DNA of 21,538 bases from an uncultured Gammaproteobacteria bacterium (GTDB lineage Bacteria; Patescibacteriota; Patescibacteriia; SG8-24): NCBI GenBank assembly GCA_964486995.1, contig CAZAOV010000019.1:1-21538 (forward strand), in the 5' to 3' direction. Shown here in pieces: positions 2,332 through 15,813 of this stretch (its first letter is position 1; every line of letters starts with the position of its first letter). Made by a program: the position numbers and the translations under genes. The notes beneath the pieces are model-generated. The model did no database searches. It saw only the letters and a program-made list of their open reading frames with translations, and was not told the DNA's origin.

Positions 2332-2504
2332 TTCTAACCTCCCAAAACTAGCCAAAGGAACACCGCCACCTTACAGCAAATATGATTTTTATTTATCCAC
2401 AGAATGGGTGCCAGGGACCGATTTGGGGATAAGTTATTCACATCTTGAGTGGGAAGATAAAAAATGCTAAAATTACACTAGATAAAACAAAAACTATTAA
2501 AAAT

Positions 2505-3734
2505 ATGAAAGCACGTGTGGCGTTTGGAACAGCTATTTTGTTCGGCATCTTTATGATGCCTGGGTTGGTCCACGCCACGCACGATGGCGCCGAAGCGGCG
2601 CTTTTTGAGTATCTGCAGGGCGAATGGGTGGATGTGGGCACTGCGGAATTCGAGCAGGCTGAGGTGGCGGACGTGAACAGCGATGATGAGATTGAGCTGG
2701 TGTTCGGAGCGATCTATGGCGAAGCTCCAGTGGTGCGCATCGCCAACTCCGAGCAGGAAACGTTATACGAGTTTGCCGCCTATGACCCGGGCATGCTGCG
2801 CGGGTTTGATTTTACGGTCGGAGATCTGGATGGTGATGGCACGCCAGAAATTATCACTGCGGCCGGTCCCGGCACTAACGGACATGTGCGAATCGTTGAT
2901 TGGCTGGGTCAGCCCAAGTTATTCCCAACCGGCATCTTTCCGTTTGGACAGGACAATCGTGGCGGCGCTTTCGTTGCCAGCGTCAACTTGTACGGCGACA
3001 GCACCGACGAGCTGCTCATCGGTTCGGGTTCTGGCTCGGACGCTCGTGTGCAGGTTTGGTCCGGGCTATACGGATTCATGGGTGAGTTCTCCGCATTCGA
3101 AGATTCCAAATACGGCGTGCGTGTAGTCGGTGCCGACCTGAACGGAGACGGTCGCGATGAAATTATCGTAGGTCAGGCGTTCGGCGGCGGTCATCTGCGC
3201 GTGTTCGAGGGCTTTACGTTCTCTCGGCTCACCGAGTTCGCTCCGTTCGGGGAAGACTTCGACGGCGGAATCAAAATCGATTCATTACATATGAACAATC
3301 CGGGCGTCGATGGTTTAGCGATACAGCGCGTTGGAGATTCCATCGCCAATCGACCGTGGTTGCCTCAGTACATCGTAATTGATATTTCGGAACAGCGACT
3401 TTACGCATATGAGTTTGGTCATCTGGCCAAGACGTTCTTGGTTTCGACCGGTCGCCATGATTTCCCGACACCGATCGGCGAATTTAGCGCACTTGCCAAG
3501 CCGGAGTTCGTCCACTACACGTGGTCATACGGCGAAGACCACCCGGAAAATTATGACCTAGGCGTGGTGCAGTACAACGTTCGTTTCTATCCGCATATCT
3601 ATATTCATTACGCACCTTGGCACAACAATTTCGGGCGCCGGATGAGTCATGGTTGCGTGAACGTGAATCGCACCAATGCCGAATGGATTTGGATATGGAC
3701 AGAAGTCGGCACACCAACAATAGTCAGGTGGTAG
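2505..3734 (+). CDS. Secreted L,D-transpeptidase (YkuD-type catalytic domain) with N-terminal FG-GAP-like repeats
   Basis: Start at MKARVAFGTAILFGIFMMPGLVHA, a signal peptide. Two FG-GAP signatures are present: GDLDGDGTPEIITAAGPG and ADLNGDGRDEIIVGQAFGGG. The C-terminal domain reads YIVIDISEQRLYAYEFGHLAKTFLVSTGRHDFPTPIGEF...RRMSHGCVNV, the Cys in SHGCVNV being the YkuD L,D-transpeptidase active-site motif. Confidence 0.8.
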   Translation: MKARVAFGTAILFGIFMMPGLVHATHDGAEAALFEYLQGEWVDVGTAEFEQAEVADVNSDDEIELVFGAIYGEAPVVRIANSEQETLYEFAAYDPGMLRGFDFTVGDLDGDGTPEIITAAGPGTNGHVRIVDWLGQPKLFPTGIFPFGQDNRGGAFVASVNLYGDSTDELLIGSGSGSDARVQVWSGLYGFMGEFSAFEDSKYGVRVVGADLNGDGRDEIIVGQAFGGGHLRVFEGFTFSRLTEFAPFGEDFDGGIKIDSLHMNNPGVDGLAIQRVGDSIANRPWLPQYIVIDISEQRLYAYEFGHLAKTFLVSTGRHDFPTPIGEFSALAKPEFVHYTWSYGEDHPENYDLGVVQYNVRFYPHIYIHYAPWHNNFGRRMSHGCVNVNRTNAEWIWIWTEVGTPTIVRW

Positions 3735-4547: not shown

Positions 4548-4667
4548 CTTTCGTGGCATGTTAGCATAACTGTAGCTGTAGAGGGGCCTGCCCTCGTCTG
4601 GATTGGCAAATGCTTGTTTCTGCGGGCAGAAGCGAGCTCAGCCGCTACCTATATATAAAGAAGGAAT

Positions 4668-5443: not shown

Positions 5444-5469
5444 GACACCGGTCAGCCGGTGTCTTTTGA
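5444..5469 (+). terminator. Intrinsic terminator after TrmB paralog 1
   Basis: AGACACCGGTCAGCCGGTGTCT perfect hairpin followed by TTTT. Confidence 0.7.
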
Positions 5470-6095
5470 AATAAAAAAGGGGCCTGCGCGAGAGTCGCGT
5501 GGTTCCCCTGTGGCGCTCAACCGTTACCCATGCTTCACCTCCTCTGGTCAGGTTGACTCACGAGCCGTCAGTTTTTTGTCGTTGACTGTCTATAGTCTTC
5601 GACCAAAAACGCATCGTTCTCACTCATCTCGTTCGTCATGGGCACCTCTTAATCGTTGGAGCTTGGTTGTTTCCCGTTTGTTGACGTTGACAAAATTTTG
5701 TGAGTCTGACCTGCTGGAGTGATGCTCGGGTTTTTTGAGCGGCGCTAAAAAAAAGTCATTCGATAAATATTTTACAGTCCGCCCACTAGCTGCCTCCTTT
5801 CATGGGTGATTTGTATTTGGGCATTTTCGCATTGCCCCGCCGCAGTCATCAATCATTATTGATATCTACGGCAGGGTAATGCTTTTTTGTCTCCGAGACT
5901 CCTCCATCTCATCGACTCTGTACTATAACATAGATTGGTAATTCTGTCAAGGGTTACAGGACATAGTTGTAAAACGCAGAAAAAGTTACAAATAATCTTG
6001 AAAAACGACAATCAAATACTGGACATTATCTAGTGATAATAGAGTTCATATTTGGCTAATTATAAATAATTATCTAAATTATGTCTAGGAAAGAC

Positions 6096-6124
6096 TTGAC
6101 ATATTTTAAAAACTGTGGTATAGT
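6096..6124 (+). promoter_or_regulatory. Near-consensus sigma70 promoter with an extended -10 and an upstream AT-rich UP-like tract
   Basis: -35 TTGACA (6096-6101), a 17-bp spacer, TGg, then -10 TATAGT (6119-6124). About 200 bp of very AT-rich DNA precedes it (5900-6095). The predicted TSS is near 6131. Confidence 0.65.
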
Positions 6125-6130
6125 CCAGCG

Positions 6131-6828
6131 TCGGAGGTTGAAACAAGCGAATCCGGCAAGCCTGCCAGCAGGCAGGCACAAGCGGAACATTAAAACTTAA
6201 TGTGAAAACAGGAAGGCTGATGACACAGAGTAAGTAGTAAAGATGTCGAATAGCGTTGTCAGGGTAGTAATCATTTCCCCGCACTATATAGGGAACCACA
6301 CCCGACCGCAACGTGAAAAGCATCAAACGAAAACTCGCCATGTCAGCCTGGGGAGGAGGCAGTCTTCCTTCCGCCATAGTTACGAAGAGCGATGGCTTCG
6401 TAGCTGAGGCGGGAGGAGTTGGCGCTCAACCTAGGTAGTCAGTATGCGTTCCGTAACGGTTTGACGCCGTTTCATACTCGAAACGTCGTCAGTGCGGGGT
6501 GGTCCGCGCGCAAACCCGGGAGTGATTTCCCGAAAGTCCAAGTAATTTCGCGGATTACTTGGAGGCCAAACCAGGCTCGAAAAAACCACCTTTCATTCAT
6601 GTGGTGGGTCAGGTTGCGCTTGCAACCTGACCCTCCTATCGGAGCGATCGAGCCGCAATTCGATATCTGCGACGGGAGGCTATTCATAATCGAATACAGT
6701 CATCGCACCACATTAGAGTCTTTCGGCTCGGCGCATGTATTTGCGATGGTCGATACGCATCGGAACAAAGAGAGATTTCGTAACGGCGTCAGCCAACTCA
6801 TAAACAGAAACCTGGTTCGGAGGGGTTA
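6131..6828 (+). ncRNA. Candidate highly structured non-coding RNA or long 5' leader of unknown family, transcribed from the strong promoter
   Basis: About 700 nt carry no convincing ORF but many perfect hairpins: GCCTGC/GCAGGC at 6161-6177, GACGcCGTTTC/GAAACGtCGTC at 6462-6490, CCAAGTAAT/ATTACTTGG at 6537-6561, and a 12-bp GGGTCAGGTTGC-GCTT-GCAACCTGACCC at 6608-6635. GGAGG with 5-nt spacing lies at its 3' end, before ORF 6829. Confidence 0.3.
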
Positions 6829-7095
6829 ATGAATTTGGTTAAGTTGGACGGTCTGCCCGAGAAGCATCTCGTTGAGGTGGCTCAGGCGAACTACGCGACG
6901 GTTCAGCGCTTGTATCCCGTCAGGGAAGCGCGGGAGATGTTGCGCAACGAAGGCGACTGCGGTGATTTCGGCGGCTATCGGCTCGTCGATACGCAGCCGG
7001 CGCGTCACAAGTGTTCGTGTCATGTGTGCCGTCGCTGGCGCAAGTCGCAGAAGCGCGACCGTCGTGCTGAGAGGAGATTCGATATGCCCGGTTAA
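6829..7095 (+). CDS. Small hypothetical protein (88 aa) with a Cys/His cluster and an Arg-rich tail
   Basis: GGAGGGGTTAATG gives a good SD. The protein contains HKCSCHVCRRW followed by RKSQKRDRRAERR. It lies in a GC-rich segment. Confidence 0.45.
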   Translation: MNLVKLDGLPEKHLVEVAQANYATVQRLYPVREAREMLRNEGDCGDFGGYRLVDTQPARHKCSCHVCRRWRKSQKRDRRAERRFDMPG

Positions 7096-7097
7096 CT

Positions 7098-7313
7098 ATG
7101 CAAGTAGTTACTCATCGTGTGAAGAAGTCTCGTCGCTGCCGTTGCAAGGGTGGCATGGCGCGTGAAATGCGGGCTCTTCGGAGCAGCGCGCACCGTCGTC
7201 ACCGACGTTCTGCAGCGGAAGCCTGCAAGATGATCGTTCGGGGAGCTGACCCCGACACCGCTTTCGGGCGTGTGGCCGTCGGTGGCTATGTCACCGAGCG
7301 GGACATCATCTAG
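7098..7313 (+). CDS. Small Arg-rich hypothetical protein (71 aa)
   Basis: The ATG is 2 nt after the upstream stop, which allows coupling. There is no own SD. The protein is very basic (RRCRCKGG, HRRHRR). GC-rich frames here can produce spurious ORFs. Confidence 0.3.
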   Translation: MQVVTHRVKKSRRCRCKGGMAREMRALRSSAHRRHRRSAAEACKMIVRGADPDTAFGRVAVGGYVTERDII

Positions 7314-7558
7314 TGATGAGGCCAGTTAGTTCCGGTTCGCAGGCGAATCGGTTGCGGTAAATCTCGACCGCATAAAACAACGAGTCGGCGTCACCTGCCG
7401 TGAGTGGTGCCCTGCCTCTTTATTTTTTTAAAGAAAGCGGGGTCCCGCCTTAACCGGCGGGAAGCCTTGGGGAAGCAGAGCCCCACTTGATAGCGGAATG
7501 ATTATTCCGCTCCTACCAGAGTTCCGAACTTGGTTCGGGACTGCGCTAGGAGGAATGC

Positions 7559-7954
7559 ATGAAAGCCACTTCGTTTTTCTCTCCGGTTCGTCGTGCAGAT
7601 TACTTCGATTACGTAATCGACCGCGGTATCCGTGTCCCGTTCAACCTGAGTCGGTTTCTTCCTGAGGGTCGGCGTGCGTTCGTTATGGTCATCCCGGTGA
7701 CCGGCGTTCGCTCCGAATGGATGGAAACGTCTGACAACGGTCGGTGGTGCTTCGGGCATACCTCCGGTTGGAACGGCAGCTATCACGACGCTTGGTATGA
7801 GCCTACTGTCTTCGTCTGGGCCTGCGGGTCCGGCAAGTTCAAGCGAGCTCGCAAGAAGTTACATGAGGCTGTCGCCCGCCACAGCGACGCAGAGCGGATT
7901 GATTCGAGCGTCGCTCGATACCGCGCCCGACTGCTTGTGCGTGAGGGTGACTGA
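7559..7954 (+). CDS. Hypothetical protein (131 aa)
   Basis: TAGGAGGAATGCATG gives a strong SD. A hairpin-dense leader precedes it and a terminator follows at 8071-8098. No family is recognised. Confidence 0.5.
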   Translation: MKATSFFSPVRRADYFDYVIDRGIRVPFNLSRFLPEGRRAFVMVIPVTGVRSEWMETSDNGRWCFGHTSGWNGSYHDAWYEPTVFVWACGSGKFKRARKKLHEAVARHSDAERIDSSVARYRARLLVREGD

Positions 7955-8070
7955 AGAAATGCATGCGCGATCGGGGCGGGGGAGTACCGCCTGGCATATG
8001 GACCCGTGGGATGTGCTGAGCGCGCTCCGGGATCAGGCCTGGGAGCATCGTTACATCAACTAGATTCGAA

Positions 8071-8098
8071 ACCCCTCTCTGTTCGGAGAGGGGTTTTT
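8071..8098 (+). terminator. Intrinsic terminator
   Basis: CCCCTCTC-gttcg-GAGAGGGG hairpin followed by TTTTT. Confidence 0.75.
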
Positions 8099-8182
8099 CT
8101 TATCAACAGTTGCGGGCAGACCTTCTATATATAAGTATATATGTGGGCCGTATGTGGCTCTGCTCATTAAAAGGGGTTCGAA

Positions 8183-8830
8183 ATGACCGATGTAAAGTTG
8201 CCGAATCGGCAAATGTTACATGAGATTCTAGAAGATCGCATCAACAACAATCGACGCCGAGTGAAAATTGCAAAGCTGATGGAGCCGTTTTTTGTCCGCG
8301 CCGAGACCGGCATCTATCAACTGTATCGGCGCAAACAGCTCAACAAGCGGCGCGTTGTTTCGGCGCTGAACAAATCACTGCGAGTCAATTCACGGCGGCT
8401 TGAATTCTGCTCGGTTGCGCGGCCAGTTCCGCGGCAGCCATGGATGACACACGATGCGTACATGGCGCTCCTCAACGACTACATGTTGCGCTGTATCTGG
8501 ACCAGCACCAGCGATCTCGGTATGCGTAGCGCATTGAAAGATGCCTACAGACAATACCTGAATCATAACTATCCTGACCTGCTAGCTGAGGCGGACGATA
8601 TTCTGCAAGATTTTTTCGGTAATTCACTCTGGAAGAGCTCCAACGAATCAATGTTTTCCGGCGTAGGCTATGTGCTCGAAGAGTCGTTGAAATATTTTTT
8701 CGCCTTTCAGCTCACCAACAACGCCAATATACAGCAGTGGTTGGATTCGCTTATGCGGTTGTTGCCACGGGCGATTCCGCTGGGCATACGAACCGACCGG
8801 CAAGACACTTGGGTAGTGCTGGTAGCGTGA
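8183..8830 (+). CDS. Hypothetical protein (215 aa)
   Basis: AAAGGGG SD before the ATG. Its stop overlaps the next gene's start region. No recognisable motif; no P-loop. Confidence 0.55.
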   Translation: MTDVKLPNRQMLHEILEDRINNNRRRVKIAKLMEPFFVRAETGIYQLYRRKQLNKRRVVSALNKSLRVNSRRLEFCSVARPVPRQPWMTHDAYMALLNDYMLRCIWTSTSDLGMRSALKDAYRQYLNHNYPDLLAEADDILQDFFGNSLWKSSNESMFSGVGYVLEESLKYFFAFQLTNNANIQQWLDSLMRLLPRAIPLGIRTDRQDTWVVLVA

Positions 8831-8834
8831 AGTG

Positions 8835-9317
8835 ATGAAGATAAGGAAAGTGTTGCTGACTGGCGTTTGTGCCGTGATGGTTGTTGCGGCCTGGTCCTGG
8901 GACGCTCAAGCGCAGGGTGGGGAATACGATTTAATTCGTGACAATCCACATGCTGAGGACATGTACTTTGGTTGGATGGAGGCGGCTATCACGCCGCCGC
9001 ACACCGCTGTTGGTTTGAGCCTAGGCGATAATCAGCTGTCTGTTCGCTGTGTATCGCTTGGACGCATGGTGCAGCATGAGCCGGGACATGGCTATTGCGG
9101 TTTGCATGTTGGGCGGCCGGGTTATCCTTCAGTTGGGATTGGCTTGTCCATGTCTCGCGACATTCGCCCGTTTCCGGATTCGGCTATGGCGATTGATTTG
9201 ACGTTCGGTTGCGCTGGCGTGGTGGCGCTGTTCGAATACGGCGACTATCGGCGCGAGTATCATGTGTTTTTTATGCTTCGCTTAGATCGGATATGGAACC
9301 CGATAAACCGAAGATGA
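8835..9317 (+). CDS. Secreted hypothetical protein (signal peptide)
   Basis: Begins MKIRKVLLTGVCAVMVVAAWSWDAQAQG, a typical signal peptide ending AQA-QG. It is coupled to the upstream gene, whose TGA lies 4 nt before. A terminator follows. Confidence 0.5.
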   Translation: MKIRKVLLTGVCAVMVVAAWSWDAQAQGGEYDLIRDNPHAEDMYFGWMEAAITPPHTAVGLSLGDNQLSVRCVSLGRMVQHEPGHGYCGLHVGRPGYPSVGIGLSMSRDIRPFPDSAMAIDLTFGCAGVVALFEYGDYRREYHVFFMLRLDRIWNPINRR

Positions 9318-9322
9318 GCTTG

Positions 9323-9350
9323 CCGCCTTCTTAATGAGGGCGGTTTTGTT
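9323..9350 (+). terminator. Intrinsic terminator
   Basis: CCGCC-ttcttaatgag-GGCGG followed by TTTTGTT. Confidence 0.5.
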
Positions 9351-9381
9351 ATCCTATAAACCCCCGGCGCAGCCGAAGCAT

Positions 9382-9459
9382 GCCCGTAGCGGCAGAGCTC
9401 GCCACTGCCCGGTTTGGCGAGCGCACGCTTCTACGGGCAGAGACGAGCTCTGCCGCTAA
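9382..9459. promoter_or_regulatory. Long imperfect palindrome / putative operator upstream of the ligase gene. Its right arm recurs at 4622-4648.
   Basis: The left arm GCCCGTAGCGGCAGAGCTCG (9382-9401) is the reverse complement (18/19) of the right arm CGAGCTCTGCCGCTAAGGG (9444-9462). There is a nested CTGCCCG/CGGGCAG pair. The right arm ACGGGCAGAGACGAGCTCTGCCGCTAA matches GCGGGCAGAAGCGAGCTCAGCCGCTAC upstream of TrmB paralog 1 at 22/27. Confidence 0.4.
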
Positions 9460-9560
9460 GGGTCGGCGGCGGTCGCTTACATTGACAAAATGGCCCACTT
9501 GAGATAAAAAATATTATTCGCAATAGTGCGAATTTTTTGTCGCCAGCCTAGGAGATTAAA

Positions 9561-10706
9561 TTGACACCACGTGAGATTATCGGACGACTAAGGGCGCTGG
9601 TAAAGGGTATGGTTTCGGCTCGCGTCAACAATAAGGTAAGACTGCGCGCTTGGCTCAAGGAGAATGAAGCGTATGTGGCCGAATGCCTGGCGTATGAGCG
9701 CAAAGAGGGGATGCCACCCACCACCTCGTTGGTATCGGCGCATTTTCATCCGGATCTGCCGCTAGTCGGGCTCAATTACACCGGTGTGGCGCATAATACG
9801 CTGTATGCCTTCCCCGAAGGTTGGACGCTGCCGCTCAGGTATTGCCGTGGTATCGTGTTTGACCGACGCGGTACACTCGTGGCGTGGCCGTTCGAGAAAT
9901 TCTTCAACTACGGCGAGCATCCCGACTCAATGAATATTCCGGAAGGTCCAATCACCGCCACCGAAAAGCATGACGGCCATTTGGGCATAATTTTCCGGTA
10001 TCGCGAACGGTTCATCATCACCACACGCGGCACGTTCACGCATCAGTCGGCCGCTGTCGGCCAGAAGATGCTGGATGAATTGGCGCGCCAGTATAATTGG
10101 TTCAAGATGTATCCGGAACAGATGACGTTGCTGGTTGAAATCATTCATCCGGAAACTAAAGTGCATCTGGATTACGGCGACGTCGAGCAGCTCATGCTGA
10201 TTGGTGCGCGCCATCATCGGGGGGATTTCTATGATTGCGAACACCGTGCATTGGAGCTCTTGTCCGACATCTTGGGAATGCCCTGTGCCAGTCAGATGCA
10301 GTTCCCGTCGCTAGGAGCTCTGGCCAACTACGTTGCCGACAACTCCGTGGTCACCCGCGAAGGTCTAGTCGCTGCTTACCGCGACGGACCGTTCCTGCGC
10401 CGCGTGAAGTTCAAGTTCCACGGCTACCTCGGCCTAATGTTCAACGCCAAGATGTCGTTCAAGTACGTTCTGCAGCGCATCATGAACGATGACCTAGACG
10501 ATCGCCTCAGCATGATGTCCGAAGAAAATCGGATTAAGGCTCAGAAGTGGGTCGCGCAGGCCATGGACGTGTGCAACTGGCCCGGCGCGCAAAAGGAGCG
10601 CTGGACGCGACTCTACAAGTTACTGCCCGAAGATCAAGACACTCCGTATGCCCGGCAGATTTGCCGTAGCTACGTGAAGTGGCTCGATGAACAAAAAAAC
10701 AATTAG
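9561..10706 (+). CDS. ATP-dependent RNA ligase-like covalent nucleotidyltransferase (Rnl-type). The family assignment is tentative.
   Basis: TTG start after GGAG. Motif I-like ITATEKHDGHLGIIF follows the KxDG pattern of ligases and capping enzymes. LLVEIIHPE and LRRVKFKFHGY resemble motifs III and V (KxK). No DNA-ligase OB or BRCT signatures are evident. Confidence 0.55.
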   Translation: MTPREIIGRLRALVKGMVSARVNNKVRLRAWLKENEAYVAECLAYERKEGMPPTTSLVSAHFHPDLPLVGLNYTGVAHNTLYAFPEGWTLPLRYCRGIVFDRRGTLVAWPFEKFFNYGEHPDSMNIPEGPITATEKHDGHLGIIFRYRERFIITTRGTFTHQSAAVGQKMLDELARQYNWFKMYPEQMTLLVEIIHPETKVHLDYGDVEQLMLIGARHHRGDFYDCEHRALELLSDILGMPCASQMQFPSLGALANYVADNSVVTREGLVAAYRDGPFLRRVKFKFHGYLGLMFNAKMSFKYVLQRIMNDDLDDRLSMMSEENRIKAQKWVAQAMDVCNWPGAQKERWTRLYKLLPEDQDTPYARQICRSYVKWLDEQKNN

Positions 10707-10712
10707 CGTATG

Positions 10713-10737
10713 GCCGCCTAAATAATGGCGGCTTTTT
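10713..10737 (+). terminator. Intrinsic terminator after the ligase-like gene
   Basis: GCCGCC-taaataat-GGCGGC followed by TTTTT. Confidence 0.75.
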
Positions 10738-10806
10738 GTTGCGTGTATTGACTTACAAAAAAAGTGTGTTAGGCTTTATACGAATTTTTAGCTCGAGAAA
10801 AAGCCT

Positions 10807-11559
10807 ATGCAAAGCAAAATAAGCAAGATGCTCAAAGAGTTGGGTCTAACCGACGGAGAAATCAAGACGTATCTTGCGGTCCTGAATTTAGGGCCAAGTA
10901 GCGCGTTAGACCTGTCCATTGCCACTGGCCTGACGCGTCAATCAACCTACAATGCCACCCAGCGTTTAAGCGACCTGTCATTGTTGGATTTTTCGGTGCG
11001 CGGAAATATTAGTGTCTTTTCCGCAAAAGATCCTTCATGCCTGATTAATTTTGCGCAAAGCCGCCAGCGAAATATGGATACGTTGGTTAAGGAACTTTCT
11101 GAACTTGTTCCAGAATTGAAGATGCAATCCGGCGGCGAGAAGCCTTCCGTAAGCATTCCTGAGGGCAAGGAAGGATTGCTAGAAGCCATGACGGTTATTC
11201 TGCAGTCCGGACCAGGCGGTGGGTATGAGCTAGTCGATTTCGAGGCGGTTAGAGAAAAACTGGCCGACCATGCCTATGAAGAGATGGAACAAATGGTAGC
11301 AAAACAGGGCGTGCGTGACGTTACCGCTTTTTTTACTGATTCCGCACCCGACAACATGTTGGAGGCAGTACAGAAAGCTTATATAATTCCAGGCGAGGAC
11401 GGAGGTTTTAAGTCCGTAGTCTGTGCGTTCGAAAAAAAGATTGTATTGGTTTCTTTGCGTGATAAGGTTCATACAATAGTCATTGAGGATGAGCTTTTAG
11501 CCGGGGCTCTGCGTCTGTTGTTCAAATACGCCGCAATCGGCCTGGAACAGCAGAAGTAA
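10807..11559 (+). CDS. TrmB-family transcriptional regulator, paralog 2
   Basis: Same 250-aa length and architecture as 4668..5420. The HTH reads LGLTDGEIKTYLAVLNLGPSSALDLSIATGLTRQSTYNATQRL, and GGEKP..EGKEG is shared with paralog 1. Confidence 0.8.
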   Translation: MQSKISKMLKELGLTDGEIKTYLAVLNLGPSSALDLSIATGLTRQSTYNATQRLSDLSLLDFSVRGNISVFSAKDPSCLINFAQSRQRNMDTLVKELSELVPELKMQSGGEKPSVSIPEGKEGLLEAMTVILQSGPGGGYELVDFEAVREKLADHAYEEMEQMVAKQGVRDVTAFFTDSAPDNMLEAVQKAYIIPGEDGGFKSVVCAFEKKIVLVSLRDKVHTIVIEDELLAGALRLLFKYAAIGLEQQK

Positions 11560-11894: not shown

Positions 11895-11923
11895 TCGCGC
11901 ATGTGGCGGCTTTTTGCTATAAT
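11895..11923 (+). promoter_or_regulatory. Extended -10 promoter upstream of the repeat-protein gene
   Basis: TGcTATAAT at 11915-11923. The -35 is poor. Confidence 0.35.
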
Positions 11924-11980
11924 GGATATGAGTTAGGGAGGAGTCCAAAATCGACCCTCGATATATTAAGACAAAAACAA

Positions 11981-13672
11981 ATGGTTGTTCCGCGCAAAAA
12001 AATGTCGGCCATATTTGCCGTCGGACTGGCGCTGGGGTTGTTGTTGCCTGCCCTCGCTTTCGCGGAGCTTTCATACAAAGAAATTATCACGCCGTATCCA
12101 ATCCGTGTCGCCCATGACGCGGATTTTAGTTGTCGTGTAAGTGATGAGGGTGCGGTGGAGTGCGATGTGATTGAGCCGCATGTCGGAACAGTGACCGTGA
12201 AATTCCCGGCCGGCACCACAACTGCCGACGATTCATCTGAGGTGCTGATTGACGTTCGTAACGTCGCTGGCCGCACAGGCGTGCGAATAGACGGCGTCAA
12301 ATTACCGGATGCGCTCAGCGAAACGATAATTATGCCTCGACCCCAGACGACGACGGCGACGCGCTTATGCATTCGCGACTATCCGAACGCCGAGTTCGTT
12401 TCACCGACATCGCCATGCTTTGATGCGATCGGGCAGGGAAGAATTTTCTTGCCGCCCGGCAATGGTCAGTTTGATTTTCGTCTGAACGACGGTTTTTCGC
12501 GCCGGGTTTCATATGATGCAAAACGGATCAATTTGTCCGGTGTGCGCCACACCATGGTGGTCTTTGACCATAATTCGGTTCCGATCGGCAATGACGATTA
12601 TTGCGCAGCATATGAAGACCGGATTGCCGACTGCAGTATTTTGCACAACGACTTAGATATGGACGGCGACGTAATTGAAATTGTCGAGGTGGGTCGTCCG
12701 TTGTTTGGCCGAGCGGTTCTCAAGGGCTCGGTGGTTGAGTATAAACCGCCAGAGGAATGGTTTGGTACGGATTATTTTGACTATATTATTTCTGACGGTC
12801 GCTCGACTGCTATGGCTGGAGTGACCGTGAAAGTCGCCAAGATCAACGACCCACCGGAGCCAATTCGCGATGTGGTCGCACTGAACGAGGACGAACAGGT
12901 GACGTTTGATGTGGTATGGAATGACCGAGACCGGGACAGTGCCACCTTGCGGTGCACTGGGGTTCAGCCGGCCGAGCACGGAACTGTGACGTTAGCCGAC
13001 GGCATGCTCACGTACGTTCCGGGCCCGAACTGGTTCGGTCGAGAGGAATTGATTTACACCGTCGAGGACACCGGGGGGGCGACCGCCGAAGGTGGCGCAT
13101 TCGTGGTGGTAACCAGCGTCAACGATGCGCCGGTGGCGGAAGATGTGAAGCGAAATACCGACGAGGACGTAGCAATTAGCGGCCAAGTACGCGCAGCTGA
13201 TGTCGACAACGATAGCCTGCGCTATTTCATAGTCAAAGCACCCGCGAACGGTACCGTGGAGATGAAAGACGACGGTACCTATACATACAGCCCGAACCTC
13301 GACTATTTCGGCGAAGACGTTTTTGCTTTTTATGCTTTCGACGGCACGACCAACTCTAACCCGGGTACGGTGACAATTGAGATTACCGAGGTTTTCGATG
13401 AAGTCGCTGTTGCGAATGGCGGTGGTGCGACCAGCGTTGCCAAAGCGATAGACGACTACGCCGCATACAACAGTGATTTGGAAACCGATCGGTTCGGCAT
13501 ACTCGCCGGTATCGAAATGGCGCGGCAAGCGGTCCCGCTCGGCGAGGTTGATCTATCACTCGTCGAACGCCTGCGCACCTATGATGTGCCGGTATACGAC
13601 ACTGCGCAAGCCATCGGCCGCTTGCTCTGGGATATTTTCTACAACATCGTATTGGCGCCGATATTTGAATAA
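11981..13672 (+). CDS. Secreted cadherin-like / bacterial Ig-like (VCBS-type) repeat protein; putative adhesin
   Basis: Signal peptide MVVPRKKMSAIFAVGLALGLLLPALAFA. Repeated about 95-aa modules have the pattern NDxP...V...ED..V.....DxDxD.L.Y.I...P.NGTV...DG..TY.P..DYFG.D.F.Y...DG. Examples: DLDMDGDVIEIVEV...YKPPEEWFGTDYFDYIISDG, NDAPVAEDVKRNTDEDVAISGQVRAADVDNDSLRYFIVKAPANGTV and DGTYTYSPNLDYFGEDVFAFYAFDG. The ORF track's ATG at 11903 lies inside the promoter and is rejected. Confidence 0.7.
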   Translation: MVVPRKKMSAIFAVGLALGLLLPALAFAELSYKEIITPYPIRVAHDADFSCRVSDEGAVECDVIEPHVGTVTVKFPAGTTTADDSSEVLIDVRNVAGRTGVRIDGVKLPDALSETIIMPRPQTTTATRLCIRDYPNAEFVSPTSPCFDAIGQGRIFLPPGNGQFDFRLNDGFSRRVSYDAKRINLSGVRHTMVVFDHNSVPIGNDDYCAAYEDRIADCSILHNDLDMDGDVIEIVEVGRPLFGRAVLKGSVVEYKPPEEWFGTDYFDYIISDGRSTAMAGVTVKVAKINDPPEPIRDVVALNEDEQVTFDVVWNDRDRDSATLRCTGVQPAEHGTVTLADGMLTYVPGPNWFGREELIYTVEDTGGATAEGGAFVVVTSVNDAPVAEDVKRNTDEDVAISGQVRAADVDNDSLRYFIVKAPANGTVEMKDDGTYTYSPNLDYFGEDVFAFYAFDGTTNSNPGTVTIEITEVFDEVAVANGGGATSVAKAIDDYAAYNSDLETDRFGILAGIEMARQAVPLGEVDLSLVERLRTYDVPVYDTAQAIGRLLWDIFYNIVLAPIFE

Positions 13673-14775: not shown

Positions 14776-15813
14776 TCATTTCCAGCACTGCGGGTCTGCC
14801 GCCTCCCACCTGCCGTTGGTCGAGTGCGTCACCGCCATGCAGCCCCGGCAATAGTTTAGAAGTTCGCAGTCGCGGCACTTCTCCAGCCGGTCGAAATCGC
14901 GGTAGCGGTCGAGTTTCTCTCCGAAAAAGATGTCGTAGAGGCTCTGCTCGGGCACCTTGCCGACCGGACTCTTGAAGCGTCGGCAAGCGTAGGCGGTGCC
15001 GTCTGCAAGGAGTGTCATGTGTGCGTTGGCTGCGCCGCAGCCGCTCACGACCACTCCGCCGGTGTCCTCCGGCGCGAAAAGTCCGCGCTCGTAGAGAAAC
15101 AGGGTCCAGAGATGGTCCTTGAGGACGAACTCGGTTGTCGCATTCTCGTGCTTGGCGTAACAGCCCCAGACCGTACCGAGAAAATCGCGGTACTCCTCGG
15201 GTGTGAAGCTGGAGCTCGCGTCGCCATCGCCCGGGCAGTGCCGCGCGAAACCGAACACTCGCGCGCCCATGCCGACCACATGATCGATGAGCTTGGGAAT
15301 GTCTGCCGCGTTTTCCTTCGAGACGGTGGACATAATGCCTACGCCCACGCCGTTGCGCTGCAGCGTGTCGCATGCCTCGCCGGTCGCACGGAACGAGCCG
15401 CGCTTCCTGAAGCGGTCATGCGTCTTCTCCATGCCGTCCAGCGACAGCTGGAATTTTCGCACACCGAGCTCGTAGAGTCGTTGCGCCACTTCGTCGGTGA
15501 TGCCGAACGGATTTCCGAGCAGGCTTACCGGCACATCGTTCTTGCGCAGATGCGCGAGCATGTCCCAGAATCTGGGATGCAGAAGCGGATTGCCACCGGT
15601 GAGCGATACGCGCGGAATCGCGCCTAGGCGCTTGCAGGTTTGAACATAGTCGTTGGCGATCGCGGTGAGGGTGCCGTAGCCCATGCGTCGCTCGCCCTCG
15701 ATTTCCCGCTTCGCGTCCGGCGACGTGTACAGGTAGCAGTGTCGGCACCGCTGCTCACAGCTGGTCGTCAGGTGCCACTGAAGGGACAAGACTGGTTTGT
15801 TGCTTTCGTTCAT
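14776..15813 (-). CDS. Radical SAM enzyme with a C-terminal SPASM/twitch-type auxiliary cluster domain (peptide-modifying maturase)
   Basis: Canonical CxxxCxxC (TTSCEQRCRHC) near the N-terminus. GGNPLL is a glycine-rich SAM-binding motif. The C-terminal Cys-rich block CGAANAHMTLLADGTAYACRRF...CRDCELLNYCRGC is typical of SPASM domains. ATG at 15813..15811. Confidence 0.85.
   Translation of the reverse strand: MNESNKPVLSLQWHLTTSCEQRCRHCYLYTSPDAKREIEGERRMGYGTLTAIANDYVQTCKRLGAIPRVSLTGGNPLLHPRFWDMLAHLRKNDVPVSLLGNPFGITDEVAQRLYELGVRKFQLSLDGMEKTHDRFRKRGSFRATGEACDTLQRNGVGVGIMSTVSKENAADIPKLIDHVVGMGARVFGFARHCPGDGDASSSFTPEEYRDFLGTVWGCYAKHENATTEFVLKDHLWTLFLYERGLFAPEDTGGVVVSGCGAANAHMTLLADGTAYACRRFKSPVGKVPEQSLYDIFFGEKLDRYRDFDRLEKCRDCELLNYCRGCMAVTHSTNGRWEAADPQCWK

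Follow-up and report, generated by a model that had tools for sequence, protein, structure and literature searches.

The stretch of DNA analysed here (the window) comprises 21,538 nt of contig CAZAOV010000019.1 of the assembly GCA_964486995.1, which is placed in the Patescibacteriota, and the subject of this study is a gene for a predicted RNA ligase on its forward strand. An earlier reading of the same DNA, made without database searches (the sequence-only reading), had placed here an open reading frame (ORF) for an RNA-ligase-like nucleotidyltransferase with a KHDG motif. The ORF was found exactly as placed, at 9561-10706, and the KHDG lysine of its 381-amino-acid (aa) product was K136. The features of the gene and further genes of the window are listed in Table 1.

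The TTG start codon was favoured because the relatives align with the protein from its first residue, including the closest relative when its ORF is read in extended form. This relative is found in L001, one of the two orthologous loci of the closest relatives (L001 and L007) that were used for the analysis of synteny. In both loci, the TTGACA box of the promoter-like site had a counterpart at the matching relative position; a promoter scan program gave a nearby weaker site at 9499-9527. A hairpin was present at the equivalent position of the 5'-untranslated region in L001 (~9908-9928) and L007 (~2502-2520), but its stem differed in sequence. The copy in the window, with its T-run, resembles an attenuator. 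Because terminator-like hairpins end both the upstream 161-aa ORF and the ligase gene, the latter appears to be monocistronic.

Short shared motifs, CCCACTTGA...ATTATTC and TTGACAAAAT, were found at 7482-7507/9494-9519 and at 5675-5696/9470-9491. They precede both the ligase gene and the ORF 7559-7954 and also occur near 5675-5696; they could be common promoter or operator elements.

Table 1. Positions of the ligase gene, its parts and further genes of the window. The clade is the group of ~85 sequence clusters, mainly from Patescibacteria and Melainabacteria, to which the ligase belongs.
Feature	Position	Strand	Remarks
Ligase ORF	9561-10706	+	381 aa, TTG start, stop codon included; Pfam PF09511; an identical protein is recorded (P0001)
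Promoter-like site, TTGACA, 17 nt, TAAAAA	9482-9510	+	putative
Small hairpin of the 5'-untranslated region (ATTCGCA/TGCGAAT), then T-run	9516-9533	+	between promoter-like site and Shine-Dalgarno sequence
Shine-Dalgarno sequence AGGAG	9550-9554	+	6 nt 5' of the TTG start; identified by inspection of the sequence
Clade-specific N-terminal segment, residues 1-57	9561-9731	+	three helices and conserved GMPxxTxLVxPFFHP; profile matches clade members only
Rnl1-type adenylyltransferase domain, residues 58-286	9732-10418	+	N sub-domain and nucleotidyltransferase core
ATP-contact residues of the N sub-domain, YCRGIVF and FEKFFNYGE	9840-9917	+	R96 = T4 R54, K113 = K75, F115 = F77; invariant alignment columns
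Motif I, TEKHDGHLGIIF, residues 134-145	9960-9995	+	K136 (9966-9968), predicted AMP acceptor, aligned to T4 K99
Motif III, LLVEIIHP	10128-10151	+	E193 = T4 E159
Motifs IV, EGLVAAY, and V, RRVKFKF	10359-10418	+	E267/G268 = T4 E227/G228; K283/K285 = T4 K240/K242
Clade-specific all-helical C-terminal domain, residues 287-381	10419-10703	+	95 aa; its own profile finds almost exclusively ligases of like architecture or fragments; resembles the T4 C-domain weakly
Intrinsic-terminator-like hairpin and T-run after the ligase	10712-10743 (hairpin 10712-10733)	+	ends the monocistronic unit
161-aa ORF	8832-9317	+	N-terminal signal peptide; no family match
Terminator-like hairpin after the 161-aa ORF	9322-9344		upstream of the ligase
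TrmB-family helix-turn-helix regulators, two paralogues of 250 aa	4668-5420, 10807-11559	+	flank the ligase segment
YkuD L,D-transpeptidase fused to FG-GAP repeats	2445-3734	+	
589-aa protein with three Big_9/cadherin-like repeats	11903-13672	+	
Radical SAM/SPASM enzyme	14776-15813	-	

Relationship of the 381-aa protein to T4 Rnl1

Residues 94-285 of the protein matched positions 1-223 of the 227 positions of the Pfam profile PF09511 (RNA_lig_T4_1). The score of 59.2 bits (E 6.8e-16), for which the cut-off is 28.3, is far above chance. When the protein was compared with T4 Rnl1 (PDB 2c5u) by phmmer (E 4.8e-8), K136 was aligned to the T4 nucleophile K99. PHROG 562, the family of T4 gp63, was matched at E 4e-37, and a profile of 72 sequences matched T4 Rnl1 with a probability of 98.4% (residues 86-314 of the query against residues 43-273 of T4 Rnl1).

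Motifs I (KxDG), III, IV and V were present in the order that characterises the superfamily of covalent lysine nucleotidyltransferases. K136-H-D-G, E193, E267-G268 and K283-x-K285 were invariant in the 72 homologues and aligned to the motifs of T4 Rnl1; motifs III and V, described as plausible in the sequence-only reading, were thus located at E193 and K283/K285. In the alignment that included T4 Rnl1, the invariant residues were R96, K113, F114/F115, K136/D138/G139, E193, E267/G268 and K283/K285, which are equivalent to R54, K75, F76/F77, K99/D101/G102, E159, E227/G228 and K240/K242 of the T4 enzyme. It was shown previously that R54 and K75 of T4 Rnl1 touch the ATP γ-phosphate and are essential for ligase activity and that F76 touches adenine (PMC6379707).

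The residue two positions past the motif I lysine is aspartate in Rnl1, DNA ligases and capping enzymes and histidine in Rnl2 and DraRnl (PMC1807946); in the 381-aa protein, it is aspartate. The histidine found at this position in Rnl2 and Rnl5 was therefore lacking, as were the appended domains of the Rnl2, Rnl3 and Rnl5 families. The domain present is the Rnl1-type adenylyltransferase common to the Rnl1, Rnl4 and Rnl6 clades.

A structure model was obtained with AlphaFold2 from the 72-sequence alignment (mean predicted local distance difference test score 96.2, predicted template modelling score 0.91). A Foldseek search of PDB with this model gave three T4 Rnl1 entries on top (E ~4e-13), followed by fungal Trl1 ligase domains. 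Other RNA ligases had lower scores in the structure comparison (Rnl3-type, 14.7; Rnl2, 13.6; Rnl5, 13.2), and the scores of DNA ligases (≤11.6) and capping enzymes (6-9) were the lowest. Thus, among the Rnl families for which comparison had been suggested, T4 Rnl1 was the best match, and the original assignment as an RNA-ligase-like nucleotidyltransferase was supported in agreement by PF09511, phmmer, PHROG 562 and Foldseek.

The structure comparison also bears on the proposal of a divergent protein akin to capping enzymes, as the sequence-only reading had considered, which would then be GTP-dependent, or of a DNA ligase. The KxDG form of motif I is indeed common to capping enzymes and DNA ligases (PMC1807946). 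However, neither an OB domain nor another DNA-ligase accessory domain was detected in the protein by domain scan or in the AlphaFold2 model, as had been stated earlier. Because the structure scores favour RNA ligases, the OB domain is missing and the last 95 residues are all-helical, this proposal was rejected as the least probable of the alternatives considered.

It may be concluded, with a probability of approximately 0.75, that the protein is an ATP-dependent RNA ligase that belongs to the lineage of T4 Rnl1, is catalytically intact and stands alone, its gene being transcribed as a single-gene unit. The ATP-dependent RNA ligase activity itself is predicted from the conserved active site.

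Terminal domains and distribution of the clade

An RNA ligase is assigned to its family by the domains that accompany the nucleotidyltransferase core (PMC6379707). Rnl1, Rnl4 and Rnl6 have a common Rnl1-type adenylyltransferase and differ in their C-domains, and the C-domain of the T4 enzyme gives it tRNA-repair specificity (PMC6379707). Because appended domains define the families, the C-domain of the protein (residues 286/287-381) was examined separately. Two of its residues, M293 and K297, were invariant, and Y289, Y302 and R306 were nearly so. The family profiles reached only the first helices of this domain, up to T4 residue 273, position 295 of phrog_562 and position 284 of TIGR02308. 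The last of these, the NCBIfam equivalog of T4 RnlA, was matched with 36.4 bits, which is under its cut-off of 242.25.

With the profile of the C-domain alone, no match to the C-domain of T4 Rnl1 was obtained (hhalign probability 0.09%); the T4 sequence used was identical to the PDB chain. No ligase was found with this profile in PDB at E up to 10, and Trl1 was not among the top 60 matches of the isolated domain. Of 1.84 billion representative proteins, 85 were found at E up to 0.001, and nearly all of these were either ligases of ~370-410 aa that carry the domain C-terminally or pieces of such ligases. Homology to the T4 C-domain by way of the ligases of Bacillus phage pW2 and those linked to Pnk-HD was also considered and was discarded since only sub-significant matches were obtained. 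Separately, it was observed that a protein of 995 aa (P0192) contained 10 separate stretches matching positions 22-63 of the C-domain profile, that is, a repeated motif.

The proximal helices of the C-domain are probably homologous to those of T4 Rnl1, and the distal part, together with the N-terminal extension, is read here as private to the clade; the protein is therefore a candidate, not an assured, member of the Rnl1 family in the strict sense. The choice of substrate is presumably governed by the helices at the N-terminus and by the 95-aa helical domain at the C-terminus.

Full-length homologues with 40-59% identity and a length of 361-415 aa were numerous in metagenomes. The named sources were mostly Patescibacteria (Parcubacteria, Saccharibacteria and Uhrbacteria) and Melainabacteria/Obscuribacterales, with some records of metagenome-assembled genomes labelled otherwise. 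The closest species-level relative, with 56% identity, was a metagenome-assembled genome of Patescibacteria, and the window thus most likely derives from a Patescibacteria-like genome. Several homologues already carried the source labels "T4 RnlA family RNA ligase" or "RNA ligase". Because the ligase is kept in some Patescibacteria with highly reduced genomes, it is suggested to be useful to them.

The enzyme class is already well known; through its private modules at both termini and its solitary gene, the ligase is a divergent variant within it, not a new system. As a tentative and rather doubtful extension, the Patescibacteria and Melainabacteria proteins might form a separate RNA ligase clade ranking with Rnl1, Rnl4 and Rnl6. 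In that case, their private modules would direct them, with no dedicated healing enzyme, to a substrate other than the PrrC-type broken anticodon loop. Such substrates could be, for example, 5'-PO4/3'-OH breaks made by hydrolytic tRNA-cleaving toxins or RNAs undergoing processing or circularisation in reduced-genome symbionts.

Genomic neighbourhood of the ligase gene

The sequence-only reading had set the ligase, in a regulator-bracketed segment, in the company of unknown proteins and a structured RNA and had proposed a local module for RNA repair or defence. Such a module, serving RNA repair or anti-phage defence, would consist of the ligase, the neighbouring ORFs, the hairpin RNA and the two TrmB regulators. 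The bracketing itself was confirmed, since TrmB-like genes flank the segment on both sides, and the stable hairpin, 85 nt upstream of the ligase start, was found as well. The neighbours at 5459-9317 had no matches in Pfam, NCBIfam, PHROG or PADLOC, in accordance with their earlier description; this and the further results given below speak against a module. PADLOC matched neither the ligase nor its 9 neighbours, and domain scans of the 21.5-kb window revealed no end-healing or modifying enzyme (Pnkp, Hen1, Pnk-HD, HD-Pnk or RtcBA cassettes).

Counterparts of the 161-aa ORF precede the ligase gene in L001 (47% identical) and in L007 (54% identical). However, because of its typical signal peptide, its product is a secreted protein and an unlikely partner of an intracellular RNA enzyme; in addition, the ORF has its own terminator. 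A role as a healing enzyme, such as a 2H phosphoesterase, was ruled out by the signal peptide and the lack of HxT motifs. The synteny with L001 and L007, which would favour a module, also included TrmB-1, whose orthologue in L001 (67% identity) precedes the ligase gene by 2.9 kb, but it extended to housekeeping genes. A DHH-family gene was part of it, and in L001, the ligase was surrounded by genes for ribosomal protein L19, a pseudouridine synthase and valyl-tRNA synthetase. This synteny looks like ordinary colinearity of related genomes.

The hairpin at 9366-9477 is long (-75 kcal/mol, z -5.5 on the + strand, the - strand folding equally well) and is located between the upstream terminator and the promoter-like site of the ligase. 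It belongs to a GC-rich element of ~100 nt that was present in two copies with 76% column identity, an intact one at 9358-9477 and a degenerate one at 4548-4648, the latter directly preceding the start of TrmB-1. No Rfam family was matched by the hairpin, no copy of the element was found in 86 related loci, and the regions preceding the ligase gene in L001 and L007 contained no equivalent. These results, together with the second copy, ruled out a ligase-associated structured RNA; of the company described earlier, the strong hairpin stood as a structure and fell as a conserved feature of the locus. The element has the character of a palindromic repeat specific to this genome rather than that of a ligase partner, and may be a repetitive extragenic palindromic (REP)-like or miniature inverted-repeat transposable element (MITE)-like repeat or a regulator-binding site.

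Other members of the clade occupied unrelated housekeeping contexts. Clustering of flanking ORFs over 87 loci revealed no clade-wide partner, only lineage-level synteny, and in a Pfam census of 107 immediate neighbours at ~55 loci, no family was found more than four times. Pnkp, HD, 2H, Hen1, RtcB, RtcA and Tpt1 were all absent from the 25 most frequent neighbour families at these ~55 loci. With no healing enzyme, no PADLOC match and no recurrent neighbour, a local module is considered very unlikely.

Lineage synteny was observed in Obscuribacterales (loci L012, L015-L021, L037 and L040), where PRPP-synthetase-like and isochorismatase/nicotinamidase-like genes lie upstream of the ligase. In 7 Obscuribacterales loci, an Exo_endo_phos (EEP) gene, which could be a 3'-end-processing partner, was located ~160 nt downstream of the ligase.

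An origin from a phage, as a counter-defence gene on a prophage or mobile island that undoes anticodon-nuclease damage, appears even less probable than a local module. The founding member of the family is gp63 of phage T4, homologues were found in 393 phage records, and the element at 4548-4648 and 9358-9477 is repeated. Nevertheless, the best phage matches had 27-36% identity, mostly in the catalytic domain, whereas the 40-59% identity of the cellular homologues extended over the full length. Moreover, no neighbour matched any PHROG, the GC content of the ligase segment was the same as that of its flanks, and the position beside housekeeping genes is kept in related genomes.

Healing enzymes were found beside more distant relatives of the ligase. 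These proteins (30-38% identity, ~340-390 aa) lack the N-terminal extension and also match PF09511. The gene directly after the ligase encodes Pnk-HD in Bacillaceae, in actinobacteria and in Bacillus phage pW2, and a T4-like Pnkp (kinase and HAD phosphatase) in Saprospiraceae, where some loci add Hen1 and a Pnkp-type ligase. The order in the Saprospiraceae loci L072, L075 and L084 was Rnl1-type ligase, Hen1 (Hen1_N and methyltransferase), a protein with an Rnl4-like Pnkp-type ligase domain and kinase-phosphatase. Two distinct ligase types thus occur there within one putative repair cluster. A hidden Markov model of the Pnk-HD partner found 19 ORFs, all at loci of the distant relatives, and nothing in the window or in the flanks of the clade. 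The sequence-only reading had named Pnkp, Hen1 and RtcB for a check of the neighbourhood in homologues; no healing enzyme was matched around the ~55 loci of the clade, and Pnk-HD, Pnkp and Hen1 were seen only beside the distant relatives. Because of the linkage in these relatives, the wider family is tied to RNA repair, and the clade itself stands alone.

Elsewhere in the window, the 877-aa product of an ORF at 18588-21221 (+) is homologous to the major vault protein (MVP) of eukaryotes (Pfam MVP_shoulder, 62.8 bits; Vault_3, 42.7 bits), and its residues 358-819 matched rat MVP structures by phmmer (E 2e-11). Bacterial MVP homologues are on record (bioRxiv 10.1101/872010). A link between this gene and the ligase 8 kb away was dismissed, as synteny of the two was seen in neither L001 nor L007. 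At 16250-16363, an imperfect inverted repeat of 54 nt (72% complementarity) overlaps the tRNA-Val(GAC) gene at 16324-16400 (-). Because one arm overlaps the 3' half of this gene, the second arm may have arisen as a partial copy of the tRNA in inverted orientation.

Predicted reaction and comparison with known ligases

By analogy with the family, K136 would attack the α-phosphate of ATP, giving ligase-(lysyl)-AMP and pyrophosphate (PMC1807946, PMC6379707). R96 and K113 would hold the γ-phosphate, F115, next to F114 (the equivalent of T4 F76), would contact adenine, and E193, E267, K283 and K285 of motifs III, IV and V would assist catalysis. AMP would then be moved to the RNA 5'-phosphate, and attack by the 3'-OH would seal the break with release of AMP.

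In the T4 system, Pnkp heals the 2',3'-cyclic-PO4 and 5'-OH ends left by PrrC (PMC6097658, PMC12409363). Because no kinase or phosphatase is linked to the ligase in the clade, the simplest explanation is that the breaks are ready for sealing or are healed elsewhere; most likely, 5'-PO4/3'-OH ends are already present or are produced by an unlinked enzyme. Rnl1-type ligases favour single-stranded ends beside stems (PMC1807946), and tRNA or another structured RNA is therefore the likeliest target. The breaks on which the ligase acts would probably lie in the single-stranded loops of tRNA or other structured RNAs, and the ligase would serve general RNA repair or maintenance.

Several points weigh against this interpretation. 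No end-healing enzyme that would supply ligatable ends is linked to the ligase. The choice of tRNA as the target is weakened because the C-domain is not recognisably T4-like past its first helices. A ligase of Runella encoded beside HD-Pnk formed ligase-AMP and did not seal standard 3'-OH/5'-PO4 substrates (PMC6097658); therefore, canonical end chemistry should not be assumed for bacterial ligases of this kind. Finally, no paper characterising a cellular member of the clade was found in the literature, nor were biochemical data on any member. The ligase might accordingly have a non-canonical end requirement, either for 2'-PO4, as in the ligase domain of fungal Trl1, or as a Runella-like self-adenylylating enzyme acting on an unusual substrate; this is regarded as unlikely, although less so than a local module.

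For the preferred reading, a stand-alone Rnl1-type RNA ligase, the significance lies in the attached domains, which on a common catalytic core decide which RNA is repaired. Once defined, the substrate of the clade would tell whether RNA breaks that can be sealed without prior healing are repaired in bacteria, and the clade could supply a new ligase specificity for work with RNA.

Among the known systems, T4 Rnl1 (gp63; PDB 2c5u, 5tt6, 9do4) was the best match in both sequence and structure. The two enzymes share the adenylyltransferase domain together with its N sub-domain, and all compared residues of T4 Rnl1 (R54, K75, F77, K99, D101, G102, E159, E227, G228, K240 and K242) have conserved counterparts in the 381-aa protein. 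The C-domain of T4 Rnl1 is likewise helical and not an OB fold. From the ligase domain of fungal Trl1 (Rnl6; PDB 6n0t, 6n67, 8rbj), the protein differs in having no fused kinase or CPD domains and no RxxR 2'-PO4 site after motif V. Rnl4, the ligase domain of Clostridium thermocellum Pnkp, which acts with Hen1, shares the ancestry of the Rnl1-like adenylyltransferase (PMC6379707). The ligase of Runella slithyformis, which is likened to the window ligase by description and not by sequence, is also bacterial and ATP-dependent and forms ligase-AMP (PMC6097658); unlike the solitary window ligase, it belongs to a putative repair cluster of four genes (ligase / HD-Pnk / Tpt1), one of which encodes a healing enzyme. 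The ligases of the Pnk-HD and Pnkp cassettes are homologous to the 381-aa protein, some alignments extending into the C-terminal region. In these cassettes, however, the healing enzyme follows the ligase at once, whereas the ligase of the window and its clade is solitary.
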